From the IMG/VR virus record IMGVR_UViG_3300043313_000605, positions 129-64,128 of that record: a DNA stretch of 64,000 bases, one strand, 5' to 3'. The translations under genes and the position numbers were made by a program. Below are positions 2,403 to 54,961 of the stretch, piece by piece. The number at the start of each line of letters is the position of its first letter. The stretch's first letter is position 1. Under the pieces are notes generated by a model, which did not search any database, had not been told where the DNA came from, and saw only the letters and a list, made by a program, of their open reading frames with translations. The DNA is from a virus. Lineage: Duplodnaviria; Caudoviricetes.

Positions 2403-2654
2403 TCAGATGAGGGTCTTGAGCATCGAGACGAGTGCCGCGCGATCGTTCGCTCGCACAACCGTTGTCGGCAATGCCTGCTCATCAGGCGTTCGTTCGATGA
2501 GCATGAGATACGTCTTCTCGGCTGCCTGCTTGAAGGCAGCCATGCCGTCTGGCGAATCGAACCACTGCTCGGCCATCCGCACCCCGCGCTGATACGCGAT
2601 GCCGAGTGACAACCACCACATCAGAACGAAAATGAACCAGAACCAGAACGGCAT
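2403..2654 (-). CDS. small membrane protein
   Basis: N-terminal Trp/Phe-rich TM segment; TCACTGGAGG leader. Confidence 0.7.
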   Translation of the reverse strand: MPFWFWFIFVLMWWLSLGIAYQRGVRMAEQWFDSPDGMAAFKQAAEKTYLMLIERTPDEQALPTTVVRANDRAALVSMLKTLI

Positions 2655-2675
2655 GCGCGCCTCCAGTGACAGGGT

Positions 2676-2861
2676 TTACTTGACGTGCGCCCAGCGCGCA
2701 CCGATCAGGATGTCGCGCACAGCGCGCTCGGAAACCTTGTACTGCTTGGCGAGCGTCACGTAGCCGGCGCCACGCTTGCCCTTGACGTACTTGGCGCGAA
2801 TCTCCCGCACCTGATCCTCGTTCAATTTCGCGTTGTGGTTCTTGGTTCCCTGCTGTGCCAT
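2676..2861 (-). CDS. stand-alone HTH DNA-binding protein, like the C-terminal module of phage HNH endonucleases
   Basis: GTKNHNAKLNEDQVREIR...LAKQYKVSERAVRDILIGARW; own RBS TTTCACTGGAGG. Confidence 0.7.
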   Translation of the reverse strand: MAQQGTKNHNAKLNEDQVREIRAKYVKGKRGAGYVTLAKQYKVSERAVRDILIGARWAHVK

Positions 2862-2881
2862 GTGATCCTCCAGTGAAAGTA

Positions 2882-3172
2882 TTACGATTGCGTGCCGAAC
2901 ATCTTCCCTGCGCCTGCATCGATCGCGTTCCGTGGATCGCCGTACCGTGCCTTCAGTGCGTCAGCCGCCATCAGGAACAACTGGAGCGACGTCTGCACCA
3001 GCACCGCGCGCCCATCTGGGAGCACCGCCGCGATACCGACTGACGGCTTCCCGCTGGACATCCCGTTCGCCAGCCCGCCGATTCGCACCGTATCCTCGAT
3101 GTTGATGATCTTGTCGAGCGGAATGTCGTTGAGCATACCTTCGCCTTCGATATGCAAATCAAGTAGTGGCAT
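2882..3172 (-). CDS. hypothetical protein
   Basis: Protein-like composition (GMSSGKPSVGI...LVQTSLQLF); TGATG coupling. Confidence 0.7.
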   Translation of the reverse strand: MPLLDLHIEGEGMLNDIPLDKIINIEDTVRIGGLANGMSSGKPSVGIAAVLPDGRAVLVQTSLQLFLMAADALKARYGDPRNAIDAGAGKMFGTQS

Positions 3173-3330
3173 CAGTGATCCTTTGGCTTCGCTGGTTTGA
3201 TTTTGCGCAATGCTTTCTCTAGCCGATTGACAGATTCAAGCGATTGCCGAATGCGAATCTTCGTGAGCCGCGCCTTATGCGACTGGATGCGCGCGCCATA
3301 GCTGCGGCCATCTTCAGGAAGCCTCCCCAT
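3172..3330 (-). CDS. small basic protein
   Basis: TAATG-coupled start at 3330; R/K-rich. Confidence 0.5.
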   Translation of the reverse strand: MGRLPEDGRSYGARIQSHKARLTKIRIRQSLESVNRLEKALRKIKPAKPKDH

Positions 3331-4703
3331 TAGTGATCCTTCGCTTGTGCAGGTTGAACTCTTGCTGCGCGAATCTTCAGTGTCTCGTCGAAATCTGGCC
3401 CCTTCCGGTATGGACGAATCCAGACTACGCGAACCCCCTTGCGTCCGACGCCGACTTTCTGCTGGCGCCAGTGCCCACTCACCCACACCGGCTTCTCCAG
3501 CTTGTGTCCGCGCATGCCGACGATCGTGATGCGCTTCTGAAACTCGTGCGCCTCGATCTCAGCCACGCGCTTGCCGACGTAGATGTAGCCCAACTTTGAC
3601 TGCTTGCTGATGCGCCGAATGACTTTCGCTTTCTTCCGGTTCGATTTGATCGCACCGAGATCGCGCCGTGGCGTCGCTGGCACCGGCTCCAGATCGGGAT
3701 GCTCGGACTGCATGTACAGGCAGAGCCCCAGCACCACGCGCGGCATAATCTTCGTCAGGAATTCCTGCTCGTCCCCTTTCGCGTAGTCAGAGCCGTGCGT
3801 GAATTTGACGTCGGACATCTTGCCATCCGGCCCGAGCCCCGCCGTGATGTACGCCGTGTTCGCGCCACCAACCGTTGACGTGCCTTCCCCGCACACGACG
3901 AAGGCAATCTCGCGCTGCTTGCCGGTATCCGGCTGCGTCTCGTCGATCGACACCATGATGCCTTCGGCGTACTCCCGATCGATCCCGCCCGTCATCAGGT
4001 TCGGCACGCTGAACGCGAACGAGCGCGACGGAATCTTGATGTAGAACGAGTGCTGCCGGAACGCGAGCATGTCGAGCGGAAACTGCGGTAGCTCGGTATG
4101 CCCCAGCATCGTGTACAGCGTCTCATCGAGCACGTACACACGCCGGCCGTCCGCGCGCCAGAGCGCCAGATGATACATCGTGTGTAGCAACTCGCTGTGC
4201 GCCGCGTGTAGCTGTTCCTCGTTCCGCAGCACGCGCCAGTCGATCAGGGTCTTCAGGTAGCTCTCGCGCCACTTCATCACCGATGGCAGCGTGTTGAAGT
4301 GCGAGATGTTGTAGATGTTGAGCGCGGCCGGCGTCGCAGGCGCGAGGCTCGGATCGAACGTGCCGAATGCCTGAAAGTGTGGGTTGCGCTGCTGGGTGTC
4401 GAATTCGAGCGTCCCTTTGCGCATCTTCTCGCGCGACTCCTCGACTTCCACGAGCAGCGTCTTCCATGACGGGAATGGCTCGGCGATGACGTTCTTGACC
4501 TTATCCACCTTCAACTCGGTCTTGTACGCCTGCCGGCCGTTGACCATGACCGGCTCCAGCTTGATGTCCTTGTCATCGATCATAATGTTCGCCATTCCCG
4601 GCTCTTTGCTGAAGTACAAATCTTCAGCGATCTCCGGCCACACAGGCGGCAGCGGTGAGCGATGGGAATGATCCTTAGTGGTGATGTTGCCAGCGCCAAA
4701 CAT
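3330..4703 (-). CDS. conserved phage protein of unknown function (C-terminal VxGHWRxQ...WIxPYxKG motif)
   Basis: 457-aa ORF; motif VWVSGHWRQQKVG...VWIRPYRKGP resembles one common in phage hypothetical proteins. Confidence 0.75.
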   Translation of the reverse strand: MFGAGNITTKDHSHRSPLPPVWPEIAEDLYFSKEPGMANIMIDDKDIKLEPVMVNGRQAYKTELKVDKVKNVIAEPFPSWKTLLVEVEESREKMRKGTLEFDTQQRNPHFQAFGTFDPSLAPATPAALNIYNISHFNTLPSVMKWRESYLKTLIDWRVLRNEEQLHAAHSELLHTMYHLALWRADGRRVYVLDETLYTMLGHTELPQFPLDMLAFRQHSFYIKIPSRSFAFSVPNLMTGGIDREYAEGIMVSIDETQPDTGKQREIAFVVCGEGTSTVGGANTAYITAGLGPDGKMSDVKFTHGSDYAKGDEQEFLTKIMPRVVLGLCLYMQSEHPDLEPVPATPRRDLGAIKSNRKKAKVIRRISKQSKLGYIYVGKRVAEIEAHEFQKRITIVGMRGHKLEKPVWVSGHWRQQKVGVGRKGVRVVWIRPYRKGPDFDETLKIRAARVQPAQAKDH

Positions 4704-5185
4704 CAGAGACCTCCGAGCAGCATGTCGAACAAACTGAATCCATCCGGATCGTCTGTCTTTGGCGTGCGGCCGAGCAGTGTAGTGATCTGCGCCTGATGCT
4801 CTGGCGCGTCCCACGCGTCAGCGACCTTTTTGTGCGCCGACTCTGAGCGATCGACCGGACCATCTGCGCACCACGCTTCGCCACACTCGAATGGCTTGAC
4901 GGCGTGAATCGAGCAGAGTCCGTCTTTCAGGAAGACGCACCGGCCCTTAGCGACAAACGGGAACTCGGTTCCCGGCTCCTCGCCCCCGATCCCCGGCGAA
5001 AGCACGAAGATCGGATCGTCGCCACGCTCCCACCAATCGACATTCAGGTAGTCGCGAAACAACTCCTCAACAGAGATGTTGAGGAACGTCGCAATCTTCT
5101 CAGCCTCTCCCGGCTTCATCCATCCCGGCTTGCGTTCGCAGCACGCAACGCATTTGGCGCACGTACAGGATTCGCGAGAACTCAT
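4703..5185 (-). CDS. YkgJ-like (CxxCxxCC) Zn/Fe-cluster protein
   Basis: CAKCVACC...CVFLKDGLCSIHAVKPFEC signature. Confidence 0.8.
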   Translation of the reverse strand: MSSRESCTCAKCVACCERKPGWMKPGEAEKIATFLNISVEELFRDYLNVDWWERGDDPIFVLSPGIGGEEPGTEFPFVAKGRCVFLKDGLCSIHAVKPFECGEAWCADGPVDRSESAHKKVADAWDAPEHQAQITTLLGRTPKTDDPDGFSLFDMLLGGL

Positions 5186-5244: not shown

Positions 5245-5655
5245 CTATTCAAGGGCTCTGGCGCTCGTCTTGACGACTTGCTTGCAGTCACGGCAGACGA
5301 AGACTGACTTGCCGACCATCTGCACGAGATGCAGCCGCGCGTGTGGGCAGCAACCGTTGCGCATCTGGCCGGTGATCACCTTGCCGTACTCGTAGCGCGC
5401 CTTCCTCACTTCCATGTCTGCCAAGAACTTTTCGCGCTGCGCAACCGTTGCTTCCAGTATCTGAAATTCCTGCTCCAGTGGGTCGAGCGTTTCCGGTCGC
5501 TTATCGAGATCGTCGCTGATCTGGTCGAGATGCTTCACGATCGCGTCTGCTGGATTCACCTTATGCGCCATCCACCGCATGAACGGCAGCCACGCGGCAG
5601 CCGCGATCATTGTGATCCATCCAATCAGGTTCTCAGGCCAGAATGCATCCGGCAT
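5245..5655 (-). CDS. membrane-anchored protein with C-terminal Zn ribbon
   Basis: N-terminal TM, coiled region, CCPH...CRDC. Confidence 0.7.
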   Translation of the reverse strand: MPDAFWPENLIGWITMIAAAAWLPFMRWMAHKVNPADAIVKHLDQISDDLDKRPETLDPLEQEFQILEATVAQREKFLADMEVRKARYEYGKVITGQMRNGCCPHARLHLVQMVGKSVFVCRDCKQVVKTSARALE

Positions 5656-5706: not shown

Positions 5707-7902
5707 TTATCGGCTCCCTGCGATGCAGCGTGTAACCGCCGCCGCGTTGCCCTCGTACGTATTCCGGCACCGCGTCTCCAGCGACGCAGGCCGGTAGCCA
5801 CTCTGCCGTGGCGTTGCGATGGCGCGGCGTACGCCAGCACGCGTTGGATCGCTCACCACCGCGCCCTGAATCTTCGCATAGACGAGCGACGCGTTCGCGC
5901 CGAGCGGACGCCCGTCGTGCGTCGGCGCCGTCCCAGAGTAGTATCCCTGCGCGTTGAAGCCTGCCTCGGCCCATTTCCCCGGTGGATACGCCACGTTGTG
6001 CGTCCAGTTCGACGTCGCGCTGTCCACGAACAGGCGCCAGTCACTACCACCAGAGCCACCATGCACGCCGTACTCGCCGTTGTCGTACGCGTTCGATCGG
6101 AAGTCCATGTTGACGATCTTCGGTGGCTGCCCGTCAAAGCTGATCGACGTCTCGACGCCAGACGCGAGGATCGTCGTGTTGTGCGTGACGGAAACGTGCG
6201 AGAGTGGGCCAAGGAACTGCCACAGCCGGCCCTCACCCCTGAAGATGCCCGTGTTCACGTTCTTCGTGATGTTGTCATATACCGTGATGCGCGACGCGTT
6301 CACCACCTGATTCTGGCACGCGGCGCAGAAGTTCCAGCCCGCGCCCGCGTTCTGCACGAGATTGTACCGGAACGTGATGTCCGTCGCCTGCGACTGCGGT
6401 GCCGTCCCATCCTGATTCACGCTCTTGCACAGAATCGCATAGCCAACCTGCCCATCGGCCCAGATGTTCTCGATGACGTTGCCTTCGACGAGCATGCGTC
6501 GCGCGTTCTTGCATTCGATCAGGTTCTTGGCCGTCCACACGCCTTTCCACGACGCCGGACGCGTGATGTGGTTGTGCCGGATCGTGATGTCGCTCGGCAC
6601 GAGCCCCGGAATCGACGGATCGCCGCCACCGAACATGACAACTTCGTGGCTGGCCTCCATGTAGTTGTTCTCGATCAGATACGGACCGGGGCCATTGAGC
6701 CCGAGCCAGCACTGCGAGTCGCCGTTGTTGTCGTGGCCTTCGGCGCACCAGCTATCGACGACGGCGGTCCGTGCGGAGTTGATGTAGAAGTTCCGCTTCA
6801 GTCGGAGTGTCGGCGTCCCAGAGACGAGCGTATGCGAGAAGACGAAATCTCCCGGCACCTGCGCCATCGTCGTCTGGTTGATCCCCAGCTTGACGAGCGC
6901 GTTGACATCTTGCGTGCCGCCGCCGAGAATCGCGACATCCTCGAAATAGTACCCATGCACGCCACCGCCGTCCGCGCTCACTGCTGGTGCGTTCCCCGCG
7001 TCCACGCTCGCGATCTTAGCCTGCTGCCGCTGCACCGACAGGCTTGGCGTCACCCGAACGCCACGCGCCAACAGCGGGAGTCCGTTGTTCGTGCGAACGA
7101 TCGTGTGATACTGCTCGGTACACGGCTTGGCTGGTAGCTGCACTGGCGCATACTGGAAGTTCGGCACCAGCCGCAACTCGACACGACACGCAGAGGTATT
7201 GAGCGCCGTCTGCAACGCGCCAGCGGACGCCGGCACATTCACGATCGTGTACCCAAGCGGGTACGTGACGTTGACGGACGCGCGCGGCAACTCGGCCAGC
7301 GTCGCCTTACCGGCGACGGGCGGCAGCGACGTGGAGTCGGTAGGCGGCGGCACCGGGATGACCACATCCTTGACCGGATAGACTTGCGACCCGACGACCG
7401 GATCAGCCGTCGCCGTGACCGTACAGTTCCCGGCGCCCTTCCCAGTCAAGAGTCCTGTGCCCGACACGTCGCAGAGCGCCGTTGGTGTTGCGCCCCAGCG
7501 AATCGGTGATGGCAGGACGACGCCGTTCGCGGCCTTCGGCGTTGCCGTTAGTTGCACACTGGCGCCAACGGTTACGGTTGCTGTGGCTGGCGCGATCGTG
7601 ACTGACGCAACGGTTGGCACAACGATTGTGTCTGGCTTCGGTGGCACTGGCCCTGATCGGCGCATCGCCGCGAGAATCGAATCCGCCGCACGCTGGATGC
7701 GAACGTTGTGCGTCGAGTCGATTCGCACATCGGCGCGCTTCACATACCCCGGCCGGCCTCGATCCTTGCGGATCGTATCGACGTCCTGATCGATGCGAGC
7801 CGTCCCAGCAACGATTTCACCAACATGCTTTTTGATCGCTGTCGTATCCTGCGCCATCAGCGGTGGCGCAAGGACGAGCAGTAGCGCGAGCAGTGTTCGC
7901 AT
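5707..7902 (-). CDS. secreted protein with Ig-like (Big_2-type) domain and right-handed beta-helix domain
   Basis: Signal peptide MRTLLALLLVLAPPLMA; VASVTIAPATATVTVGASVQLTATPK Ig-like; repeated IENNY/IRHNHI/VEGNVI/FRYNLV strands. Confidence 0.8.
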   Translation of the reverse strand: MRTLLALLLVLAPPLMAQDTTAIKKHVGEIVAGTARIDQDVDTIRKDRGRPGYVKRADVRIDSTHNVRIQRAADSILAAMRRSGPVPPKPDTIVVPTVASVTIAPATATVTVGASVQLTATPKAANGVVLPSPIRWGATPTALCDVSGTGLLTGKGAGNCTVTATADPVVGSQVYPVKDVVIPVPPPTDSTSLPPVAGKATLAELPRASVNVTYPLGYTIVNVPASAGALQTALNTSACRVELRLVPNFQYAPVQLPAKPCTEQYHTIVRTNNGLPLLARGVRVTPSLSVQRQQAKIASVDAGNAPAVSADGGGVHGYYFEDVAILGGGTQDVNALVKLGINQTTMAQVPGDFVFSHTLVSGTPTLRLKRNFYINSARTAVVDSWCAEGHDNNGDSQCWLGLNGPGPYLIENNYMEASHEVVMFGGGDPSIPGLVPSDITIRHNHITRPASWKGVWTAKNLIECKNARRMLVEGNVIENIWADGQVGYAILCKSVNQDGTAPQSQATDITFRYNLVQNAGAGWNFCAACQNQVVNASRITVYDNITKNVNTGIFRGEGRLWQFLGPLSHVSVTHNTTILASGVETSISFDGQPPKIVNMDFRSNAYDNGEYGVHGGSGGSDWRLFVDSATSNWTHNVAYPPGKWAEAGFNAQGYYSGTAPTHDGRPLGANASLVYAKIQGAVVSDPTRAGVRRAIATPRQSGYRPASLETRCRNTYEGNAAAVTRCIAGSR

Positions 7903-7913: not shown

Positions 7914-8237
7914 TTATTGGGTGATCTTCGCGACTTGCCGCATGACGTGAATCTTTGCTTCGACTTCGGTCGAGCCGAATGCTACGATCGCAAACGGAAT
8001 CCCACTCTCATCGACAGGGCCGATCGCCGCACGCACGCGTGACGCGACCGGATTCGTCGGATAGACTTGCGTCGCCATCCACCAGCGCGCCGTCGCCACC
8101 ATATCGAACCACCACTTCTCGGCAGCCGCGATCTCGCGCTGGTGATATTTGATGCCGCTTGGCATGACGCCGTAGATTTCGACTGACACGAGCGCGTTGA
8201 ATGGAATGTCTTCGTCAGACCAGCCGATGATGGGCAT
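7914..8237 (-). CDS. hypothetical protein
   Basis: TAATG-coupled to the exonuclease gene. Confidence 0.65.
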   Translation of the reverse strand: MPIIGWSDEDIPFNALVSVEIYGVMPSGIKYHQREIAAAEKWWFDMVATARWWMATQVYPTNPVASRVRAAIGPVDESGIPFAIVAFGSTEVEAKIHVMRQVAKITQ

Positions 8238-9232
8238 TACGCACGGCGACCAAAGCTGGGGCGCAGCACACGAAATACCGTGCGCCGCTGATACGGTAGC
8301 AGATTCAAGTCTGGGTGATCTTCCTTCAGCGCGTCAAGGTCGAGCCACGGCTTGTCCTGTTCCTTGTACGTGACCTTGCCGATGCCGGGAACGACGACTT
8401 CCGTCACACCCTCTGTCTCGACTAGTTCTTTTAGCACTTCCTCAAATCCCTCTTTGATTGCCTTAGCAATCGCGTACTTCTCGCGAGCCTCTTTCACTGC
8501 GCTAAGTGTCTGCTTCCATGCTGGCGTATCCCGCACGAGCGAGCCCGCCGTCAGTTGCGCGCGAGCCCGCGTCTCCTCACTGATGGTCTCGGTATGCCGC
8601 GCCAACCGTTGTGCGTCGAAGTTGCCGGCCTGCACCATCTCCCAGAAGTGATCGCAGACCTCGAAAATCTGCGCAATCATCTCCTCGTCACGTTCGACGT
8701 CGATCGTATACAACACCCAATCCTCCGCGTTCAAGAACGCGAACGAGCCCCACGCCAGACCGGTGACCGCAAGGTAGTGCTGCAATTGTGCGTAGTAGCT
8801 CGGATTGACGCCCACTTCGCGCGTCGCGCGCCAGACCGGCAAACGCGGACACTTCGCTTCCAGAATACCAGTGCCACGCATGGCGGCACGCACTTCATCG
8901 TCAGTAGCATCGACGATCAGCCGATCCGGATTCGCGTGCATGTACGGCCGATCCGGATGCGTAATCGCTGGCCCGAAGTGAATCGTACGCCGGCCCGTGT
9001 CGCGCTCGTACTTTCGCACGCACGCGGCCTCTAGCTCGCGCCCACGCTCCATGTCCGGATTGTCTGGCGTGACGACGACCGGCCGGCTGTCGAGCACCGC
9101 CGTGATGCGCTCGTAGATCGAGCGCGCGTCCGACTGGTGACGATTGACGCCGAGTAGCGTCCCGATGTCACTCCCTCCGATGGAGGGACGCGGGACGTAC
9201 GGCTCGGCGCCGGGGTTGGCGAGATCAGGCAT
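8237..9232 (-). CDS. YqaJ-like (lambda-exonuclease family) recombination nuclease
   Basis: IGGSDIGTLLGVN, RGRELE, ANPDRL, LEAKCP, YYAQLQHYL motifs. Confidence 0.9.
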   Translation of the reverse strand: MPDLANPGAEPYVPRPSIGGSDIGTLLGVNRHQSDARSIYERITAVLDSRPVVVTPDNPDMERGRELEAACVRKYERDTGRRTIHFGPAITHPDRPYMHANPDRLIVDATDDEVRAAMRGTGILEAKCPRLPVWRATREVGVNPSYYAQLQHYLAVTGLAWGSFAFLNAEDWVLYTIDVERDEEMIAQIFEVCDHFWEMVQAGNFDAQRLARHTETISEETRARAQLTAGSLVRDTPAWKQTLSAVKEAREKYAIAKAIKEGFEEVLKELVETEGVTEVVVPGIGKVTYKEQDKPWLDLDALKEDHPDLNLLPYQRRTVFRVLRPSFGRRA

Positions 9233-9758: not shown

Positions 9759-10007
9759 TTATTTCCGCTCCACCGGACCACCGCAATACCGACAATGGGT
9801 TTTGCGTAATGCTCCACCAATCTCCTCCAGCTTGAACACACACCAGCCGATCGGGCTTTTGTCGCATTCCCAGAAATTCGACACTGCGTAATCGAGGAAA
9901 TGAAAATCAGGAATCACCAGCTTTGCAATTTCATTGACCTCAGATTGCGCACGATCGATCGCGCGCCAATGCGAACCAATAAGTTCTCGCGCAAGCGGAT
10001 CAACCAT
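9759..10007 (-). CDS. small Cys-containing protein
   Basis: WECDKSPIGWCVF...CRYCGGP. Confidence 0.6.
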   Translation of the reverse strand: MVDPLARELIGSHWRAIDRAQSEVNEIAKLVIPDFHFLDYAVSNFWECDKSPIGWCVFKLEEIGGALRKTHCRYCGGPVERK

Positions 10008-10392
10008 TCCGCGCCCCGTGCGGATCGTCCTGCGCCGACCCGAAGACCGGCCCCGTGCCACTCTCCACAACGGTTGGCGCGGCCGACCCCGTTTTGTCTT
10101 GCCGATGCTTCCGGCCCTCGTGATACCGGCGCAGCGTCTTGATGTTGTGATACGACTCATGGTAGCCGTCACGCAACCGATGCGTGTGCTGCCGCTCCCC
10201 TTCCGTGCGCGGCTTCACGCGGTTGTCGAGCCGGTACACCTGATGCCGTAGCTCGGCCTCGACGATGTACAGCGCGTCGATCAGCTTCCCCAGATCACGC
10301 GTGATCGGGTGCGACGTATCGACCAGATCGACATGGCGTTCGTCGCCCTCTGGTAGCTCCTCGTCGTCGTCGATGTATGGTGAGTCGATCAT
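10000..10392 (-). CDS. hypothetical protein
   Basis: GAGGAG RBS; ATGA coupling. Confidence 0.65.
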   Translation of the reverse strand: MIDSPYIDDDEELPEGDERHVDLVDTSHPITRDLGKLIDALYIVEAELRHQVYRLDNRVKPRTEGERQHTHRLRDGYHESYHNIKTLRRYHEGRKHRQDKTGSAAPTVVESGTGPVFGSAQDDPHGARNG

Positions 10393-15019: not shown

Positions 15020-15158
15020 TGCTGGGGCGAGTGACAGGGGAACGAACGGTAGGATGGTGGTAGGGTTGGAGTTTTCCTAATCACTTGGTCCCCTCAGAAA
15101 CCCAAGCAACCAGAGCGCCCTTACGGGTAGCCCACTCCCCCTACCACCAACCGTTGTG

Positions 15159-16527: not shown

Positions 16528-16737
16528 TTACCTCCCGACTCGCTCACGGTTGACGGATGCGATGGCGTAGTTCCGAGCCTTCGCGTACTCCGGTGTCAGC
16601 AATCCACGTCCATGATCGTACGTCTTCCAGACGGCATTGCGCAACGGTTGTGGAACGGCGAACCAGTGCGGCTTACACATGAGATGCCCAGTTTCAGGCA
16701 CTCTCGTACAGCCGATGATCGGACAACTCCGTGGCAT
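16528..16737 (-). CDS. small Zn-finger protein
   Basis: CPIIGC...LMCKPHW; GGGGAG RBS. Confidence 0.7.
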   Translation of the reverse strand: MPRSCPIIGCTRVPETGHLMCKPHWFAVPQPLRNAVWKTYDHGRGLLTPEYAKARNYAIASVNRERVGR

Positions 16738-16791
16738 GATTACTCCCCTACGAGTAGCGGGGCGCACAACCGTTGTGCGCCCCTCGTGACG

Positions 16792-42183: not shown

Positions 42184-43067
42184 TAGGCGAACGGCTGGAT
42201 GGCGATTTCGTACGTCGTTTCAATCAACCCACTCTCAACCACGACTTGCGCCGTATCGGCGGACCCGAGCGAACTGATATTCTTGACATTCCAGACGTTC
42301 GGCATCCCGGTCGGATAGACTTCGATTTGGTCGCCGGGGAACGGCGTGCAGATGATGTCCGCGTCTGGAATCAGCGTGCCGGACGCATCCTTCACTTCGA
42401 TGACGATCCCTCGGACGTCGCCGATCGCCAGCACATTGTCGTACGACTCGTCGTGCGGATAGACGTCGATCGAATCCGGCACCATCGGCTGCACCGCGCC
42501 ACCTGTCGTAATGCCGGCAATGTCTTCCTCGACTTCGATCGTCAGCACAACGGTTGCGAGCAGATTGCTCGAATCGTCGCCCCCGATCTGCGGATCGACG
42601 TAGCCGGTCACAAGCGGCAGCACGAACACGCCAGCCGGCCAGTCGTTCTCGACTGGGGTGAGCAGCGTGATCGTGTCGCCGAGTATCGAGTCGATGACAA
42701 TGCGTTCCGTGCCGATCGACTCGTGGTACAGCATTGCATCGACGAGAAACTTGCGCGGCGCGACCGGCGCATCGACCACAACGGTTGTGTCGGTGGCTAT
42801 TAGCGGCACGTTCAGCATCATCGCGTCTTCCCATCGCGGGAAGGCGATCCGCATATCCTTCGTGGTGTGCAGCAATCGCTTCAACTGCGCAGCTTCGTCC
42901 TGACTCGACGTCGTGATCGTATAGACCAGCGTCTCCCGTGGCTTCGACCGCAGGCGACGGCGCTGTTCCGCGCCGTTCCGCATGGGAATGATGTCCGTCT
43001 TCCACGACAGCTTGCGGGCGACGTTCGATTCCCAGTTATGCTCTAGCACGAATGCGGGCGCCGTCAT
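42183..43067 (-). CDS. tail protein
   Basis: HNWESNV...LSWKTDII...GAEQRRRLRSKPR, typical of proteins following a tape measure. Confidence 0.75.
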   Translation of the reverse strand: MTAPAFVLEHNWESNVARKLSWKTDIIPMRNGAEQRRRLRSKPRETLVYTITTSSQDEAAQLKRLLHTTKDMRIAFPRWEDAMMLNVPLIATDTTVVVDAPVAPRKFLVDAMLYHESIGTERIVIDSILGDTITLLTPVENDWPAGVFVLPLVTGYVDPQIGGDDSSNLLATVVLTIEVEEDIAGITTGGAVQPMVPDSIDVYPHDESYDNVLAIGDVRGIVIEVKDASGTLIPDADIICTPFPGDQIEVYPTGMPNVWNVKNISSLGSADTAQVVVESGLIETTYEIAIQPFA

Positions 43068-46000: not shown

Positions 46001-47677
46001 AAACTTGTCGGCGATCTTCGCATTCGGAATGTCGAAGAATCCGACGAGTGCCGCGTTGCCCTCACGCCGCAGCGCATCGAACAGCGGCTTCGTGGCCGCG
46101 CCCGCGAAGACGTCGAAGCCTTCCTTCAGGTTCGACAGGAGCACGGTCATGTTCTGCATCGAGCGTTCGCCCGCGAGCGAGAATTGGCTGAACCGCTGGA
46201 TCAGTCGCTCCGCGAACACGCCCTGCTGCTTCCACGACGAGATCAATTCATTCGAGATACCGAGCGTCTTGGCAATACGCGTGTTGTACGTGACCGTGCC
46301 GGCGAGCAACGACCGCACTTCCTCGTTCAACTGGTGCATCGGGAGCCCGATCGCGGACGCGGCCTGCGTCACGCCGATCGTGAATTTCCGAATCTCGTCG
46401 AGATTGAGCCCGCTCCGAAGACCGGGACCGACCGCTTGCTGGAACGCCGTGACCAACTGCTCGGTCGTCGCGGCGGTCGCCAAGCCGGCGACACGCAACT
46501 GCGTCACCTGCTCCTCGCTCACGGCCATCGCGGCATCGAGCGCCTTCGATCCTTCCAGCAGCCGGTTCTGCGAATCGTACAGCTTCGCCTGCGCCGTGAT
46601 CAGCGTCGCGATACCGAGCGTCGCCTGATTGACCGTCTCGTTGAACTGGAAGCCGGCGCGAATGAACGCCATGAACTGCCGCGCACCCGTGATCGCCGTG
46701 CCCAACTGAATGAGCCGGCGCACGAGCAGATGCGTCGCGGTGGCACTCGTGTGCGTGCGAACCGCGTTCTCGCGAAGCGCCGTGTTGTGCTGGCGCATCG
46801 CAGCACCAGCACGCGACGCCGCGTTGATTTGAGCAACCTGCGCACGCGACGCCGCGTTGATTTGAGCAACCTGCACCGCCGCTGCCGCATGCTGCGCTGC
46901 CGCCGCGCGATTCGACGCGGCAATCTGGGCGGCAGCCAGCCGGGATGCGGCAGCCGTCGCACGATTGGTTGCCTGCGTCTGCTGATTGAGCGCCGCAACC
47001 GTTGCGCGCGTGCCCGCGAGCGCCGCCTGCGTCTGCTGCGCCATCGCGCGCGCCTGCTGGGCATTGCCCTGCAATGCCGCCTGCGTCGCCTGCTGCTGCG
47101 TTCTCGCCGCCTGCGACGCCGATGCGATATTCGCGCGAATCTGGGCCTGCTGCTGGTTCGCCTGCTGACGACCGGCTTCGACCATCGCCTGTGTCTGCGC
47201 GTGCATCGCACGTACCTGATCGGCCGTGCCCTTAATGATGCTGGCCGTTCGCTGCTGCTGCGCGCGCGCGGATGCGGATGCGGCCTGTACCTGCGCCTGC
47301 GTCTGCTGCTGCAACGCGCGCGTCTGCTCCGCAATCGCCTGTCGCTGTGACCGCGCGCCCTCGATCGCCGCCTGCGTCGCCTGCTGCTGCGCGCGCGTGT
47401 GCTCGCGCGCCGCCATGCTCGCCTCGTGCTGCGCCGTGACCAGCGCCTTCATGGCAGTCATCTGCGCGCGGATCGACGCGACGTAGCGCTGGATCGACGC
47501 CTGACTCTTGGCGTACGTCGCGGCAATCTTTTCGGCTTCCGACCGATCGCGTGCCGCCGCCGCCGCGTTTTGCTTCGACGACTCCGTGAGTTGCTTCAGT
47601 GCTTCGGCGACTGCCTGAAGCAGCGCCTTCGCACCGGCATCCTTCGCACTAATTTTTAGACTGATATCGTCTGGCAT
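43064..47677 (-). CDS. tail tape measure protein
   Basis: 1537 aa, Ala/Gln-rich coiled coil; C-terminal YADGG; follows the tail chaperone. Confidence 0.9.
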   Translation of the reverse strand: MPDDISLKISAKDAGAKALLQAVAEALKQLTESSKQNAAAAARDRSEAEKIAATYAKSQASIQRYVASIRAQMTAMKALVTAQHEASMAAREHTRAQQQATQAAIEGARSQRQAIAEQTRALQQQTQAQVQAASASARAQQQRTASIIKGTADQVRAMHAQTQAMVEAGRQQANQQQAQIRANIASASQAARTQQQATQAALQGNAQQARAMAQQTQAALAGTRATVAALNQQTQATNRATAAASRLAAAQIAASNRAAAAQHAAAAVQVAQINAASRAQVAQINAASRAGAAMRQHNTALRENAVRTHTSATATHLLVRRLIQLGTAITGARQFMAFIRAGFQFNETVNQATLGIATLITAQAKLYDSQNRLLEGSKALDAAMAVSEEQVTQLRVAGLATAATTEQLVTAFQQAVGPGLRSGLNLDEIRKFTIGVTQAASAIGLPMHQLNEEVRSLLAGTVTYNTRIAKTLGISNELISSWKQQGVFAERLIQRFSQFSLAGERSMQNMTVLLSNLKEGFDVFAGAATKPLFDALRREGNAALVGFFDIPNAKIADKFQGIVKIAQDIFGSIGSLMTKAIRNAFGAAAQLSRYFEENRASIDGVIAGAKELATQMGRVLGVTVEIIAKTLGVAAETGTWEKLLRSIAKLMQLTADTLGWTIKQFQSHEFQEGLDKITTFLKWTPVGIGFRVISGGLSMLGEALGTVDVAAEKAQRSLELADEKARDNATEVAKLTVEYELLKKKIDSGKLSGAGLAEAQEKLKTIVAQIIQIAPQYTEQLSKWGAGAKETAQAVKQLQIAQENLLVTQFESARANADTIKSQLDLERDLANANEAASDRARAAGDNTLADKFQDQAKQARESIERLTPTLDDAENRVTAILGAMNNLNKETAKLKPTKIVPDPEDKEPKKSNDFRQMIEAAIEQVRNAFKRAKDALDEELDHQEISFADYVTTLLRAERDAVNAEIKLRRELLAHTEDVGERAKIQQDINDLVNRRIGLAQDAKRKLTDLEKSLNDELAQLSLARLRQDEQTGEARRIELEQQFQKLRRVMEINKVPTLGLDDFINVEVARAKLEDLNRVISRASSQAQNRIGEINALAARGMITTAEQARAVGAAYDAQIAAIERALPAMRAFAEASKNDEAIESVRQLEVELGNLVEAQRLAVSDLARYVEIGLNGFQSGVAEAFGNIGTHIEETVRYFDENTGKMVEKTKERLYSLIDFAKDVSLSILRALQQQLAQEFAQNLTRMARGALAKIGINIGGDMSSAVLQQTAAKEQVAAATTNVQAASTFAASMATLQGMLPALSATLGGAAAGDAIGNATVREIGAVAGDGAVEAAELAAATGLQAAGAALLTASSALGASMVPSATALSGAAAALSAAAAALARAALANGASGAEGLVNQINSFSRGIGQPIQMGGAAAFGAGLNGGQGLSGPRRSMAFTTTDQAVVMPSFTVPNVSSPTMSRYADGGAVDASVAALARGSGASATPQAVRVMLDVQSNDSHILKVQQSDPGAAVTMRNLRRNRRSAKGIIG
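46809..46874. repeat. 33-bp perfect tandem duplication in the tape measure gene
   Basis: gcacgcgacgccgcgttgatttgagcaacctgc x2 (QVAQINAASRA). Confidence 0.85.
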
Positions 47678-48556: not shown

Positions 48557-49351
48557 TTAGGCCGGGAGATACGTGACCTGATACAACTGGTTGCCGGGGT
48601 GACCGACCGGATCGGCCAGCACGCCGCCGACGAGTCCGAGATCAGCGAACTCCTCGGAGATGAGACCGAGCGCTCCGTCCGGCGTGAACGACGCCTTCCA
48701 GATTTCGACCATCATCTTCGGGCCGGCAGACGGATCGCCCACGAACAGGAGCGAGCCTTCGATCGTGTTCTGCGTGCCACCCTTGACGCGCTGCACCGCA
48801 CCAGCGGTGTACGCGGTCGGCGTGTAGCCAACCGTGAGCGTTGACCCATCGACGATGGTTGCGCTGACCCCATCGAAGATGTGAATGATGCCGGCGATCG
48901 GATCGACGATCTCGTAATCCGTGCCGAGCACACCAACGCTCGGGACGATCGGTGCGGTGTACGGTCCCAGCTTCGAGACCTTGTAGTACGCCCCACGCAC
49001 GACACTCGTGGTGAGCACTTCACCCACGACCGCCGTTGCCGGCTGTGCGTAGGTCTCGTCCACTTCGCCTTGCGTGATCAGCGCAAGGTTGTACGGGTGG
49101 AACTCCGACAGCGTGAGTCGGACCGTCACGTTCCGGCGACGGGTGATCTTTTTGTACAGTGGTGCGTCCTTCGTCATGCTGCTGAACTTCTGGATGATAT
49201 CGTCTTCGGTCGTGATCTCCATTGCATCGACGTTCCCGAGATGCTGAAGACCTGTGCCGTTACCGGCGTTGTCGAAGCGATTGATCCAGACACTACCCTT
49301 ACCGACGATGAGGTTGTCGGCATCGGGCGCGGCAGCCCACGTCTGCGCCAT
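48557..49351 (-). CDS. major tail (tube) protein
   Basis: NLIVGKGSVW...HLGNV...LTLSEF...EGSLLFVGDP..GP...PDGALGLISEEF. Confidence 0.85.
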   Translation of the reverse strand: MAQTWAAAPDADNLIVGKGSVWINRFDNAGNGTGLQHLGNVDAMEITTEDDIIQKFSSMTKDAPLYKKITRRRNVTVRLTLSEFHPYNLALITQGEVDETYAQPATAVVGEVLTTSVVRGAYYKVSKLGPYTAPIVPSVGVLGTDYEIVDPIAGIIHIFDGVSATIVDGSTLTVGYTPTAYTAGAVQRVKGGTQNTIEGSLLFVGDPSAGPKMMVEIWKASFTPDGALGLISEEFADLGLVGGVLADPVGHPGNQLYQVTYLPA

Positions 49352-51365: not shown

Positions 51366-52424
51366 TCACGCGCCAGCGTCGATGACCCACATGCGCTTCT
51401 CGCGCGGAACCGGGAACGCGTTGACCTGACACTCGTAGGTCAGTTCGCGTCCGTTGCCCCCGACTTCGACGAACACCCGCTGGCCGCGATTGTCGAAGCT
51501 GGCTCCAGCAGACGCGCCGACATTGTTCATGTCGTGCGCGCGGTAGATCGGTGCATAGCACATGTTGCCGACTTCGATGTTCGACGGCAGCAGCGCCATC
51601 TTCTCATCGGGCCAGACATCGGTGGCCGTCGTGGCACCACCGCCGTCCGCGTAGACGTCGAACTGGTTCTCGCGAATGTAGAAGCGGAAGTCCACTCCCA
51701 AGTCCTGCGAGACCTGATCCTCGAACTGCCCAGCGGTGAGCGGCACCCCGTTGAGCCCCATCGGCGCGTCCGCCTGAATCACGCGATAGAGCGAACGACG
51801 CAGCACGACACCACCGATCGAGCCGATGGCATCCTTGCCGTCTTCTGCCCACGCGATGAACTCCGCGTACGCATCGACGCCCGCATCGTCCCACGGCGTC
51901 GCGGCATTCTGCCACCGCGCCGGATCGTAGTTGTACGAGACGGTCTGCGTCGCGTTCTTGTGCGGATGACGAACGATGATCGTGCCCGTCGTCCATGCCG
52001 TCACGTAGTCGATCTCCAGACGACGGAAGTTGGCTTCCGCCAGCGCATCGATGCGATCGGGGATGGAGGAGCGGATGATGTCGCGGAAGGCCGCGACGTT
52101 CCCCTGCACACGCTCGCCGTAGTCCTGAATCTCCTTCTCGGCGAACTTGAAGTAATCCTCGACCGGAATGAATTCCATCTCGGCGAGGTCCGGGGTCTCC
52201 ATGTTGATCTGCCGGCCGCGCGTGTTCCACTCGCGGCGATCGGACACGGGACGGAAGTCCACGTCGCCGATTTCCTTCAGCTTGACGCTGTTGACGTTCT
52301 TGCGCGGGAAAAAGATGTCCTGAAGTGTCTCGTCAACGTCGTCAGGGTCGATCTCCTGCACGCGTCGAGTGAGCACATCGGGAGACAGCCCTTCCTCCTG
52401 CGCCGCCCATGAAAAGGGACCCAT
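51366..52424 (-). CDS. major capsid protein (phage_cap_E-like)
   Basis: 352 aa; FFPRKNV, RRLE...AWTTGTI, YNYDP, W...VDAY, VNAFPV; follows scaffold and decoration genes. Confidence 0.85.
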   Translation of the reverse strand: MGPFSWAAQEEGLSPDVLTRRVQEIDPDDVDETLQDIFFPRKNVNSVKLKEIGDVDFRPVSDRREWNTRGRQINMETPDLAEMEFIPVEDYFKFAEKEIQDYGERVQGNVAAFRDIIRSSIPDRIDALAEANFRRLEIDYVTAWTTGTIIVRHPHKNATQTVSYNYDPARWQNAATPWDDAGVDAYAEFIAWAEDGKDAIGSIGGVVLRRSLYRVIQADAPMGLNGVPLTAGQFEDQVSQDLGVDFRFYIRENQFDVYADGGGATTATDVWPDEKMALLPSNIEVGNMCYAPIYRAHDMNNVGASAGASFDNRGQRVFVEVGGNGRELTYECQVNAFPVPREKRMWVIDAGA

Positions 52425-53670: not shown

Positions 53671-53818
53671 GCGATTCCCCTGTGCGGCGGGTGAGTCCGA
53701 AACAGCCCATTGACGGCGGGCCGGGACCGAAGCAGGCGACGTCAGCCGCCCGAGTGATGAGCGAAGCTGTCATTTTGGCATGCCCACTGTCAAGTAGGCA
53801 GTGACATTGCAAGCAAGA

Positions 53819-53854
53819 GAAAACCCGCCTCAACCGTAAAGGTTTCAGCGGGTC
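53819..53854 (-). terminator. intrinsic terminator-like hairpin
   Basis: acccgc...gcgggt followed by TTTCTC on the minus strand. Confidence 0.55.
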
Positions 53855-53855
53855 T

Positions 53856-54020
53856 CTACGAGATTGGCCCTGTGGATGGAGTCGCGTTCGCATCCGGTGC
53901 CCAGCCGTCTCGTGCGGCCTGTGTTTGGTCTAGGCAAGTGATCCGCGCTGGGAGTCATCTCCGAAGGATAACCCAACGCATTCGGCCCCGACCATTCTGC
54001 TTGGCAAAGAGAGAATGCAG
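53856..54020 (-). ncRNA. candidate structured RNA in the head module
   Basis: Several stems, one capped by cUUCGg; no credible ORF; ends at a terminator. Confidence 0.35.
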
Positions 54021-54025
54021 TATAA

Positions 54026-54961
54026 CTAGCGCAGGTTCGCCAGCCAACCCCCGTAGTTCGATAGCTGAACGTCGCTCATAAAACACCCGCAGTACGGATG
54101 TGGTGACCCCGGCCAGCGATCGATCGCATATCGGCCGGGGCCAAACCCGCTGTTCCGTGATGCGATGTCATCGCAGATGTCCGGCGATGACCGGAGCCCG
54201 GAGTGGCGCGCTGAGAGCGTCCACCGCCCCGTACGTGCGAGCCCGAGCGCCGCGAGCGCGCGCGCGTCGCCTTCTCGCATCGTGTTGAATGTTTCGGCCA
54301 CGACAACGGTTGCGCCCAGCATCGCGAGCCCTCTGAGTGGCGTCATCTCCTCACGCCGGACGTCGTACCGCTCATACTCGATGTCCTGCCCAAGCAGCAA
54401 GAGAAAGAGATCGTTCGACACTTCATCAGCCGGCGTATCGATCAGCGACGATGACAACAACAGTTGTTCGGCCGCTGTCGTCGCGTCGCTCGCGTACGCG
54501 GACGCAAGCTGGGGAATCGAGAGATCGTTGCGACGCAACCGGCGCACGGCATCCTGCACATTGAACGGGACGCGACGCACACGATCGTAGAAGATGTCGC
54601 GCGCCGCCCGCCCAGCTTCGACGCCGTTGTTCTCGACGACGATCCCAACATGCGTCGCCAAGAGACTTGCGATCACGAAATCGACGAATGCCTCTGATTC
54701 CAGCCCGCGTTCTCGAATGACATCGGACTGCGCTTGAATGGCGGCGCGCACGTACCCGCGCAGTCGTGCCAGTTCCACCGGATCGAGCGGCCGGCCTTCG
54801 CGCCCAGCGCGCGACGACAATCGCTTGAACTCATTGGCGATCTGCGCGAAGACCTGAACCAGCGCGAGACGGCGCTCCTCAGATTCGAGGAAAGCCGTCT
54901 CGCGAATGTCCACGAGCGCTCGATTGATGCGCTCGCCCGCCTGCCGCTCAGTGAGCGACAT
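54026..54961 (-). CDS. head morphogenesis/minor capsid protein (SPP1 gp7/Mu gpF-like)
   Basis: WTLSARH...DICD...GPGRY...PHPYCGC; follows the portal gene. Confidence 0.8.
   Translation of the reverse strand: MSLTERQAGERINRALVDIRETAFLESEERRLALVQVFAQIANEFKRLSSRAGREGRPLDPVELARLRGYVRAAIQAQSDVIRERGLESEAFVDFVIASLLATHVGIVVENNGVEAGRAARDIFYDRVRRVPFNVQDAVRRLRRNDLSIPQLASAYASDATTAAEQLLLSSSLIDTPADEVSNDLFLLLLGQDIEYERYDVRREEMTPLRGLAMLGATVVVAETFNTMREGDARALAALGLARTGRWTLSARHSGLRSSPDICDDIASRNSGFGPGRYAIDRWPGSPHPYCGCFMSDVQLSNYGGWLANLR

Follow-up and report, generated by a model that had tools for sequence, protein, structure and literature searches.

A short palindrome, CAACSGTTG, recurs so often in the DNA of an uncultured soil phage that it raises the question of which protein, if any, recognises it, and what such an array of sites would do for the phage. 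We analysed a single stretch of 64,000 nucleotides (the window) and recovered the 30 copies listed in the initial annotation, all exact, with no further matches, corresponding to 468 per Mb. The description of the palindrome as genome-wide holds across the present part of the record, which is classed as linear and has a CheckV completeness of 67%. The longer 13-mer CACAACSGTTGTG occurs five times (starts 16765, 19629, 29019, 29568 and 42777) and the A/T-centred variant CAACWGTTG also five times, both as annotated. The sites and variants are as follows:

2456–2464, CAACCGTTG site, in ORF 2403–2654 (-), phase 1 (TTVV)
3869–3877, site in ORF 3330–4814 (-), phase 1
5351–5359, site in ORF 5245–5655 (-), phase 2, the sole phase-2 site
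5442–5450, site in ORF 5245–5655 (-), phase 1
7608–7616, site in the gene for a 731-aa Big_2 protein, 5707–7902 (-), phase 1
8603–8611, site in a RecE/YqaJ-like exonuclease gene, 8237–9232 (-), phase 0 (QRL)
10068–10076, site in overlapping candidate ORFs 9759–10172 / 10000–10392 (-), frame uncertain
15148–15156, intergenic site between ORF 15159–16022 and the primase-helicase gene; hairpin not stable (z +1.0)
16381–16389, site in ORF 16121–16525 (-), phase 1 (TTVV)
16642–16650, site in small Cys/His-rich ORF 16528–16737 (-), phase 0 (QPL)
16759–16783, 25-bp perfect palindrome centred on intergenic site 16767–16775, downstream of ORF 16792–17040
19327–19335, site in ORF 18901–19605 (-), phase 0
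19620–19650, 31-bp perfect palindrome centred on intergenic site 19631–19639, upstream of the 18901–19605 / SNF2 helicase block
20681–20689, site in Amidoligase_2 gene 20564–21706 (-), phase 0
22287–22295, site in glutamine amidotransferase gene 21648–22670 (-), phase 0
24498–24506, site within the ParB-like gene, phase 1 (TTVV)
25428–25436, site in ORF 25278–25694 (-), phase 0
25673–25681, site in ORF 25278–25694 (-), phase 1
27897–27905, site in ORF 27715–28494 (-), phase 1
29021–29029, site in the gene for a 1237-aa protein, 28665–32378 (-), within its stretch of tandem 20-aa repeats
29570–29578, site in the 20-aa repeat family of the same gene (-)
29762–29770, site in the 20-aa repeat family of the same gene (-)
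30002–30010, site in the 20-aa repeat family of the same gene (-)
36088–36096, site in tail/virion protein gene 35261–36406 (-)
38479–38487, site in 878-aa tail protein gene 37499–40135 (-)
42548–42556, site in ORF 42183–43067 (-)
42779–42787, site, full 13-mer, in ORF 42183–43067 (-)
44186–44194, site in 1537-aa gene 43064–47677 (-), a tape measure judging from its size and location alone
46996–47004, site in 1537-aa gene 43064–47677 (-)
54304–54312, site in head-morphogenesis gene 54026–54961 (-)
28168–28176, A/T-centred variant
30122–30130, A/T-centred variant in the tandem repeat of gene 28665–32378 (-)
43961–43969, A/T-centred variant
54458–54466, A/T-centred variant
59324–59332, A/T-centred variant

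This abundance is not explained by base composition or by the encoded proteins. Dinucleotide-preserving shuffles (n=100) gave a mean of 0.39 copies and a maximum of 3, in line with the earlier estimate of less than one copy by chance, and a third-order Markov null predicted 1.15 perfect copies. The codon-preserving check that had been proposed was run by shuffling synonymous codons within each gene (n=300), which keeps proteins and codon usage and yielded a mean of 5.0 copies (sd 0.93, maximum 8); since 4 of the 30 sites lay in unshuffled DNA and stayed fixed, the comparison is of ~26 coding sites with ~1 expected. As annotated, the copies are mostly genic, only three being intergenic (15148, 16767 and 19631), and are spread over 20 or more genes and three reading frames. 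With site 16642 reassigned to ORF 16528–16737, 18 lie in phase 1 (xTVx), 8 in phase 0 (QRL or QPL) and 1 in phase 2. The codons they require are disfavoured: GTT makes up 11% of Val codons, with 18 of the 171 GTT codons falling within the motif, and CAA 20% of Gln codons. Given the excess over synonymous shuffles, the three frames and the disfavoured codons, the sites are under DNA-level selection, contrary to codon preference.

The motif is also all-or-none. One-mismatch variants show no excess (21 against 22 expected, 5 of the 21 being the W-centred form), and of 34 occurrences of AACSGTT in the window, 30 are flanked by C...G. In this the sites resemble a recognition sequence rather than a fuzzy operator or a composition effect. 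A weaker dyad flank, GCR...YGC, extends the palindrome outward, a symmetry that two 7-bp half-sites would predict. The phage DNA is otherwise depleted of palindromes: 11 of the 40 hexamer palindromes with an expectation of at least 10 copies are absent from the window, and CCWGG is found 0 times against 85 expected. Because palindromes have been purged elsewhere, the 9-bp palindrome appears to have been retained because it is wanted. The GC content, annotated as about 63%, is not uniform but ranges from about 0.60 to 0.64 per 4-kb window.

Site density is higher in the DNA-metabolism half than over the structural genes. As initially noted, the split is uneven: the first 30.5 kb holds 23 of the 30 sites and the remainder 7 (binomial p=0.0016). 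The stretch 59.4–64 kb holds none. The densest stretch, 16.5–31.8 kb, holds 14 sites (0.92 per kb) and contains the ParB-like gene. Although the count of 30 stands, the independence of the copies does not: sites 29021, 29570, 29762 and 30002 and the W-centred variant at 30122 all occupy the same register of a 60-nt tandem repeat within a single gene, and these four or five are therefore not independent events. When the four repeat sites are left out, the skew persists (19 of 26 at or below 30.5 kb, p=0.010).

The protein proposed to bind the sites lies within a group of adjacent, co-oriented genes:

23488–24813 (-), candidate binder, a 441-aa ParB-type protein with ParB_N, HTH and an orphan C-terminal half
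22670–23101, GGACT, co-oriented neighbour
21648–22670 (-), GATase, co-oriented neighbour
20564–21706 (-), Amidoligase_2, co-oriented neighbour

Its annotation as ParB-like was borne out. The protein consists of ParB_N (40–116; Pfam PF02195, E 3e-10), an HTH (127–192) and an orphan C-terminal half (about 230–441). It matches PHROG ParB-like families, PDB profiles 1vz0 (E 6e-14), 6t1f and 7nfu and, by Foldseek (prob 1.0), 7bm8, 6t1f, 7nfu and 8qa9; in the predicted model (pLDDT 80.5) the N-terminal half resembles ParB, Noc and KorB structures, and the CTPase-pocket boxes GRRR and ENYQR are present. By these matches the protein is a genuine ParB/Noc/KorB-type CTPase with an HTH. Two results count against it as the binder: the HTH match (PF17762, 22.0 bits) falls marginally below the 22.6 cut-off, and KorB itself was not recovered by sequence search at E≤0.01. 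Neither a ParA-binding motif nor a membrane-targeting or ParA-binding N-terminus was seen in the protein. The absence of ParA reported earlier was upheld in that no ParA family occurs in the record, a statement that covers only the 67% present. In Pfam scans of 70 ORFs, most of which had no family, the ParB HTH was the sole sequence-specific DNA-binding domain, and neither a repressor nor an integrase was found. One site (24498) does lie inside the ParB-like gene, but two 55%-identical homologues carry DTIV and DSVL in place of TTVV, so that it could not be preserved in them, which again speaks against this binder.

How does this array compare with known systems? The plasmid RK2 carries 12 OB sites for KorB, against about 30–35 in the phage. 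Both systems pair a ParB-family CTPase and HTH, predicted in the phage, with an odd-length palindrome with a central G/C, present as identical sites dispersed on a replicon of ~60 kb, some of them distant from promoters; KorB-OB sites are clamp-loading points for long-range silencing, much as proposed here, and the best Foldseek TM-score normalised to target (0.58) was obtained with KorB chain 8qa9_B. The initial annotation's description of OB is confirmed in the available text of PMC11790492, where the core TTTAGCGGCTAAA is a 13-bp palindrome with central G/C that serves as a clamp-loading site. The two differ in site sequence, in the mostly coding location of the phage sites, in the phage not being a plasmid, in the lack of a KorA, IncC or ParA partner in the phage record, and in the unrelated, orphan C-terminal half of the phage protein. 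Noc uses many dispersed palindromic sites, and parS (16-bp) and NBS (14-bp) are even-length palindromes. Chromosomal ParB and Noc are the nearest proteins by sequence and fold and share the CTP-pocket boxes; Noc, like the phage protein, has many dispersed palindromes and no ParA partner, and is described without a ParA motif in the available text of PMC12704722. In contrast to the strict 9-bp phage core, however, parS and NBS tolerate mismatches, and the phage sites are denser by one to two orders of magnitude.

A published precedent for such an array is provided by the repeats of the Cluster O mycobacteriophages. The available text of PMC4351075 describes in Corndog 34 invariant 17-bp dyad repeats, of which 23 lie in the non-structural operon and 14 are intergenic, and just 3 one-mismatch sites, together with a ParB-like domain gene and without an integrase or parAB; its authors conclude that the repeats serve a dimeric DNA-binding protein in some role outside transcription initiation. 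Like the phage studied here, Corndog thus combines more than 30 copies, invariant arms, sites in and between genes, a non-structural bias and a ParB-like gene, whereas its motif (TGTTCGGNNNCCGAACA) has 7-bp arms and a 3-bp spacer, and its intergenic share contrasts with 3 of 30 here. No mycobacteriophage record was matched by the phage ParB query, and protein similarity to Corndog was not detected. Cluster A stoperators are likewise tens of short repressor sites across a phage genome, also within transcription units, but are asymmetric and oriented with transcription (PMC4351075, available text), whereas the phage site is a true palindrome; moreover, stoperators are a feature of temperate phages that encode an immunity repressor, a class of gene that, with integrase, is missing from the scanned ORFs.

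We tentatively favour, at a probability of about 0.45, a KorB-OB-like array of loading sites for the phage's own ParB as the best reading, so that the initial interpretation as a whole is partly supported. This is suggested by the precedents of KorB-OB and Corndog, by the ParB/Noc/KorB fold, CTPase-pocket boxes and sole Pfam DNA-binding domain of the protein, and by the position of its gene within the densest stretch of sites. Against it, the density of ~30 sites in 64 kb is, to our knowledge, several times that of any ParB-family system; one peptide repeat supplies four or five of the copies; and about one third of the phage genome may be missing.

The same strict double-stranded array could instead be read by another binder, either an unrecognised phage protein (for example, one encoded by the small ORFs without a family, such as the Cys/His-rich 69-aa ORF 16528–16737) or a host nucleoid or repair protein exploited by the phage. 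We consider this rather unlikely but worth weighing, as the majority of the 70 scanned ORFs have no Pfam family and ParB and sites are linked here by co-presence alone. In addition, the Corndog authors, in the available text, did not attribute the repeats to its ParB-like protein (PMC4351075). Yet the scans turned up no further HTH, RHH or Zn-finger DNA-binding family, and the ParB-type protein has an architecture that suits a palindrome and is encoded where the sites are densest.

It is distinctly improbable that the word is host-driven, whether as a HIP1-like iterated palindrome arising from a methylase of the host or from biased short-patch repair, or as a palindromic Chi-like or uptake-type signal; it would then be as frequent in the host chromosome as in the phage, which would simply have inherited it. 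The all-or-none profile does resemble enzyme recognition sequences and HIP1 (GCGATCGC), a short, strict cyanobacterial palindrome that is 15- to 300-fold over-represented, including in coding sequence (PMC5861425, available text). HIP1, however, is a property of host chromosomes, whereas the word studied here has an uneven distribution along the phage DNA, the record holds no N6/N4 or C5 methylase, and the word is at background level in all sampled bacterial genomes. Among 457 genomes searched with the 9-mer (5 plus 201 Burkholderiales and 251 Alphaproteobacteria), counts followed a reversed-word control and reached at most 54 per Mb. Of 401 Actinomycetota, 2 carried a single copy of the 15-mer, and 5 other genomes had one or two copies apiece; the phage has 4. 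As these samples span <1% of the species in the genome collection searched, they provide a weak test.

We are still more doubtful that the ParB-type protein brings the GGACT, glutamine amidotransferase and amidoligase enzymes to the sites for DNA modification, an idea credited to Aravind and co-workers for phage ParB proteins (PMC8256090, available text). The adjacent, co-oriented genes would fit, but the amidoligase module recurs with no adjacent ParB in the other phages Geobacillus GR1 and Arthrobacter Wheelbite (2 of 2 regions), enrichment is not required of a modification target, and the extreme avoidance of restriction-type palindromes suggests that modification affords the DNA no broad protection.

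It is very improbable indeed that the sites act as hairpins in RNA or in a single strand (as terminators or as elements for processing or stability) or arose as a by-product of repeated peptides. The perfect palindromes around sites 16767 and 19631 do fold well as RNA (-25.4 kcal/mol, z -2.5, and -27.9 kcal/mol, z -3.9) and some sites share a tandem peptide repeat. On the coding strand, however, a T-run follows neither of these long hairpins, two ordinary sites gave folds no more stable than those of shuffled sequence, and the sites are spread over many genes and three frames. Complementarity between the flanks from ±1 to ±4 (13, 11, 10 and 7 of 30 sites) is at the chance level (11.0, 12.1, 11.2 and 7.6), so that the majority of sites are not hairpins.

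If the array does serve to load ParB, the core and its fullest form, GCACAACSGTTGTGC, would be strict double-stranded recognition sites for a dimeric, sequence-specific protein, most likely the partner-less ParB/Noc/KorB-type protein. We infer, by analogy with KorB-OB, ParB-parS and Noc-NBS, that its dimers would recognise the sites through the HTH, take up CTP in the GRRR/ENYQR pocket of the N-terminal part, close to form a clamp and then slide away. The 30–35 sites would in this way load many clamps on the DNA-metabolism half (0.55–0.92 sites per kb), whereas the structural genes would receive fewer. Such a coat, which the initial annotation had imagined might coat, compact, silence or position the DNA, may provide KorB-like timed silencing of middle genes, organise replicating or packaged DNA, or shield the DNA of the phage.

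All 30 copies of the 9-mer CAACSGTTG reported in the initial annotation were recovered at positions exact to the base, as compared with 0.39 in dinucleotide shuffles (largest 3) and 1.15 under a third-order Markov null, and the five 13-mers and five A/T-centred (W-centred) variants were found where it had placed them. The enrichment also survived a codon-preserving shuffle, the check proposed in that annotation: when synonymous codons were permuted within each gene 300 times, keeping proteins and codon usage, the motif appeared on average 5.0 times (maximum 8) versus 30 observed. Since 4 of these mean 5.0 copies are sites in unshuffled DNA, the coding copies number about 26 versus about 1 expected. 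Eighteen sites lie in phase 1 (NCA-ACS-GTT-G), eight in phase 0 (CAA-CSG-TTG) and one in phase 2, with three intergenic, site 16642 being counted in a 69-aa ORF (16528-16737). The motif makes use of disfavoured codons: 11% of Val codons are GTT, and the motif holds 18 of the 171 copies of this codon. Four sites (29021, 29570, 29762 and 30002), together with the W-centred variant at 30122, all occupy the same register of a tandem repeat, with a unit of 60 nt (20 aa), in the gene for a 1237-aa protein, and may therefore share a common descent, which calls for a discount on the count. The motif array is real and strongly selected.

Strikingly, the genome otherwise shows extreme avoidance of restriction-type palindromes. 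The record lacks 25 of the 64 hexamer palindromes; of the 40 with an expected count of 10 or more, 11 are absent (CCGCGG, GTCGAC, CACGTG, CTCGAG, GAGCTC, CAGCTG, CTGCAG, GGATCC, CCCGGG, TGGCCA and AGATCT), versus 25 missing among the 2300 non-palindromic hexamers of equal expectation, and CCWGG occurs 0 times in the record versus 85 expected. That 30 copies of a 9-bp palindrome persist amid such a purge implies that the motif is kept on purpose.

The motif is all-or-none: while perfect copies are in great excess, those with one mismatch number 21 versus 22 under the same third-order null, five of the 21 being the W-centred form. Its centre favours S (30 S, 5 W). The dyad symmetry extends weakly outward as GCR...YGC, a pattern fitted by 14 left and 18 right flanks, with seven sites fitting at both flanks and five at neither flank, a picture more like half-site contacts that add up than like a stem.

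The sites are spread unevenly along the window (23 at or below 30.5 kb versus 7 beyond, p=0.0016), and the skew remains (19/26, p=0.010) once the four repeat-borne sites are removed. Density is 0.55 per kb over 1-16.5 kb, rises to 0.92 per kb over 16.5-31.8 kb, the stretch surrounding the ParB-type gene, and falls to 0.22 per kb beyond, with zero sites in 59.4-64 kb. No regular spacing was seen (coefficient of variation of gaps 0.90 in the dense half).

The window comprises the whole 64,128-bp virus record minus its first 128 bases. The record is classed as linear, has no terminal repeat that we could find, and is given a CheckV completeness estimate of 67%, so that it may lack one third of the genome. 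GC content is 0.60-0.64 across the window, and almost all convincing ORFs are carried on the minus strand. A siphovirus structural module of ordinary type occupies ~35-59 kb, and 59-64 kb is a block of small ORFs. A DNA-metabolism block (~2-28 kb) holds a RecE/YqaJ exonuclease, a DnaG-Toprim-MCM primase-helicase and a SNF2 helicase, followed by an amidoligase trio with the ParB-type gene adjoining it. No DNA polymerase was found among the ORFs scanned in this ~67% complete record, and tRNA and Rfam scans of the window gave no match.

Features of the window, with strand where noted
16759-16783, intergenic, 25-bp perfect palindrome centred on the motif (RNA hairpin -25.4 kcal/mol)
19620-19650, intergenic, 31-bp perfect palindrome centred on the motif (RNA hairpin -27.9 kcal/mol)
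20564-23101, minus strand, trio of Amidoligase_2, glutamine amidotransferase and GGACT (gamma-glutamyl cyclotransferase), directly downstream of the ParB-type gene
23488-24813, minus strand, ParB-type protein
33884-34435, Amidase_2 endolysin
48557-49351, major tail protein
51366-52424, major head protein
54961-56655, portal
57503-58861, large terminase
Structural module, tape-measure position, 1537-aa protein
Structural module, tail hub and tail proteins, GTA/phiJL001-like

Two further ORFs were noted in passing. The 1237-aa protein (28665-32378, minus strand), encoded between the DNA-metabolism block and the tail/lysis genes, has no Pfam or PHROG family, and its C-terminal half consists of diverged 20-aa repeats in series (...SALAQGRxSxTVVxAAADL...); it may be a fibre or surface protein. 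The 69-aa ORF (minus strand) is Cys/His-rich (CPIIGC...HLMCKPHW), has no Pfam family, lies between the 25-bp palindrome and ORF 16121-16525, and contains one motif copy.

A second word, GTTCACT (full form TCACGTTCACTGAGG), was observed 25 times on the coding (minus) strand versus 2 on the opposite strand. Its copies run from 2184 to 63657 and are densest in 59-64 kb (for example at 60987, 61602, 62391, 62936, 63332 and 63657), where a conserved hairpin (GCGCCAGC...GCTGGCGC) stands before them. The word usually lies ~10-50 nt 5' of a start codon, with the GAGG within it serving as Shine-Dalgarno sequence, and may be a phage promoter, 5'-UTR or processing cassette.

The phage is an orphan: no nucleotide match was found among 50,697 phage records (megablast with a 12 kb query); the terminase is 45-50% identical to those of Microcystis and Brevundimonas phages, and the primase 32-35% identical to those of Bacillus and Microbacterium phages. 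A tblastn search with the ParB-type protein against phages returned just 2 weak gut contigs, the major head protein (a phrog_29 match) gave no match when searched for relatives, no related locus was confirmed in viral contigs via ParB, primase or portal, and none was found when metagenome and genome contigs were searched with an alignment of ParB. Homologues were found only in ENA and Logan assemblies, at 55% identity for the ParB-type protein (P0002 and P0003) and 46-72% for a tail protein. All six sequencing runs found are labelled soil metagenome; the four compared hold identical short contigs, and one of these four (X4) additionally contains a diverged relative. None of the 41 run differences listed (262 more being unlisted) falls in a motif site, which carries little weight.

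Within this genome the 441-aa ParB-type protein is the candidate binder of the motif. It matches ParB_N (PF02195) at E 3e-10, with 40.4 bits against a cut-off of 26.3, and the boxes of its CTP pocket are intact: VLQPV (Box I, LQP), AGRRRVAAA (Box II, GxRR) and TENYQR (Box III, ENxQR), with G77, R78-R80, N114 and R117 invariant or nearly so among 50 homologues. A helix-turn-helix (HTH) follows directly, scoring slightly below the cut-off for PF17762 (22.0 versus 22.6 bits) and supported by a profile alignment to Spo0J/ParB that reaches residue ~183 and by the Foldseek matches given below. Profile matches in the PDB, made with the protein and two close homologues, include Spo0J/ParB, Caulobacter ParB and Noc (E 6e-14 to 1e-9). 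The AlphaFold model has a mean pLDDT of 80.5, with the N-terminal 220 residues mostly >90, and Foldseek aligns it with probability 1.0 to N-plus-DNA-binding chains of ParB (ParB-CTPgammaS), Noc and KorB over ~200 columns. Taken together, a predicted ParB_N fold with its pocket boxes and an HTH place this protein in the ParB/Noc/KorB family.

The C-terminal ~210 residues (~230-441), where family members would carry their dimerisation domain, have no Pfam family, and in a search of 1.84 billion representatives only a single further cluster (50% identity) proved to share this half. Its model consists of beta-hairpin/helix units and helices (pLDDT about 60-90); the best structural look-alike in the Atlas scored 0.76, below the useful level, and a homodimer prediction (0.40 versus a mark of 0.42) speaks neither way. 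The ParA-binding motif (L/F/I)G(K/R)G(L/F/I), as defined in the cited part of PMC12704722, is absent from the protein. ParA itself, which the initial annotation had not seen, is indeed missing from the 67%-complete record, where PF13614 and PF01656 gave zero matches while 14/14 control genomes matched, and neither the ParA partner nor the ParA-binding motif of a ParABS partition system was found there. Pfam scans of 70 ORFs, in which most small ORFs were unmatched, revealed no other sequence-specific DNA-binding domain and no KorA-like family. A scan of 14.9-20.4 kb for sigma-70 promoters gave 2 matches versus 1.1 expected. One motif site lies inside the ParB-type gene itself; the sequence rules out the same site in both 55%-identical homologous genes.

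The best-supported reading of these data is an array of strict duplex-DNA docking sites for a dimeric protein, and as its binder the leading candidate, we infer, is the phage's orphan ParB-type CTPase with its HTH. The protein would load at the motif in a site-specific manner, as KorB does at its operator OB; CTP-dependent clamp closure would come next, followed by sliding along the DNA, and the clamps would silence, organise or shield the DNA. In its full form, this proposal assigns the part of a phage 'chromatin' protein to a CTP clamp of the ParB/KorB type, without a partner, in a soil siphophage that looks virulent. More than 30 strictly conserved loading sites, written into coding DNA at a codon cost in a genome otherwise cleared of palindromes, would allow the clamps to cover the replication-module half of the chromosome and to silence it in a timed manner, organise it or shield it; we would give this proposal roughly one chance in three.

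A live variant is that the ParB-type protein steers DNA-modification enzymes to the motif sites. The idea that ParB proteins direct such enzymes to sites is quoted in the cited part of PMC8256090, and it is relevant here because the amidoligase trio adjoins the ParB-type gene. On the other hand, parts of this trio occur without ParB beside them in both other phages examined, Geobacillus GR1 and Arthrobacter Wheelbite. No N6/N4 or C5 DNA methylase was found in the 67%-complete record.

Alternatively, the motif might be a host-wide iterated palindrome, common in the host chromosome in the manner of the cyanobacterial HIP1; if so, HIP-like palindromes would have a new member from outside the cyanobacteria. 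The uneven spread of sites within the phage, in place of an even one, argues against this. We also counted the 9-mer in 457 bacterial genomes (5 from chance 15-mer matches, 201 Burkholderiales and 251 Alphaproteobacteria), and the densest held 54 copies per Mb versus 468 per Mb in the phage; counts in the sampled genomes followed those of a reversed-word control. The 15-mer, present 4 times in the phage, was found across 406 genomes once each in two of 401 Actinomycetota and 1-2 times in each of five others, and in genome contigs it gave at least 120 scattered single matches, with one locus holding 2. The sampled genomes represent under 1% of the species in the collection, and the tallies include three unpublished genomes (G036 in Burkholderiales; G650 and G850 in Alphaproteobacteria) on which the conclusion does not depend. 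GTA-like tail domains and NCG-rich codon use hint at a soil proteobacterium as host, which is only a lead.

A further reading, as intrinsic terminators or REP-like hairpins, does not fit the set of sites: the flanks at +-1 to +-4 are complementary no more often than chance predicts, the folds of two ordinary sites are no more stable than those of shuffled sequence, and long stems occur at just 2 of the 30 sites. The 25- and 31-bp palindromes, which flank a block (16792-19605) holding the SNF2 helicase, form stable RNA hairpins that lack a T-run, and might serve as master sites of high affinity or as elements at transcript ends.

The docking-site reading finds its nearest parallels in KorB and in a group of mycobacteriophages. 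As the initial annotation had stated, the core of the KorB operator OB on plasmid RK2 (TTTAGCGGCTAAA) is an odd-length palindrome with a central G/C, according to the cited part of PMC11790492; the phage motifs are likewise identical copies of a palindrome of odd length, centred on S, and they lie scattered over the same replicon as the gene for the ParB-type protein. In the cited part of PMC4351075, the Cluster O mycobacteriophage Corndog is described as carrying 34 copies of TGTTCGGNNNCCGAACA, with invariant arms and only three sites that depart from the repeat by one position; the non-structural operon holds 23 of these 34 copies, and this phage has a ParB-like gene, with no integrase and no parAB. 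The parallels between the window and Corndog are close except in the sequences themselves. On the docking-site reading, the array in the window represents a variant form of the site arrays of ParB/KorB type, and it adds an example to the unexplained phage repeats of Cluster O type. In the literature searched on ParB, phage palindromes and amidoligase, we found no paper in which such an array, in a phage lacking lysogeny genes, is ascribed to a protein of ParB type, and, judged by titles, none of the matches listed for CAACCGTTG concerns phage or DNA-binding sites.

Other phage DNA was surveyed for similar arrays. The 15-mer marks 87 single-site stretches in viral contigs, with at most 3 copies of the 9-mer in each locus, and tblastn of these 87 loci found none related to the window phage. 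Four other loci with a similar ParB N-plus-HTH gave top palindrome scores of 2.2, 9.1, 14.0 and 7.5 (-log10 p), under a survey null that ignores codons and with loci longer than the controls; scores of at least 7 were also reached by 7 of 183 control loci. We rejected these loci as evidence for arrays of their own: the score of 14.0 reflects a local cluster of five copies within 160 bp, while the words of the other two, CCTCGAGG and CTCGNCGAG, come from DNA with 67-72% GC and can plausibly be put down to Leu-x-Glu codons, given the codon-blind null. A gut phage contig (MT836017.1, locus L212), whose ParB N-plus-HTH is 31% identical to the window protein, was seen to carry five copies of TAGTANNTACTA within 160 bp (3165-3330), ~2 kb from its ParB gene; this cluster is local and parS-like, not a dispersed array. 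Four control loci from large unrelated phage contigs (L020, L001, L029 and L046) have a dispersed palindrome of their own, TAAGNNCTTA. In L020 (IMGVR_UViG_3300010160_000023, a 199,884-bp contig), 11 copies lie in 11.8 kb versus 0.21 expected under a first-order model, which has the look of a further palindrome array in a phage.

Phages commonly encode proteins of the ParB fold, most of them unexplained. The combination of a strict array with a canonical CTPase-plus-HTH ParB lacking a ParA makes a testable pair of one protein and one 15-bp duplex (GCACAACSGTTGTGC), which would tell whether KorB-style clamp loading works on lytic phage chromosomes. Should the binder prove orthogonal, protein and site would make a compact pair with which to label DNA or to build synthetic silencing. 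The Cluster O repeats, themselves unexplained, would also gain a candidate function, and, if the proposal is true, the window phage and the Cluster O repeats would together point to a widespread, undescribed role for orphan phage ParB proteins.
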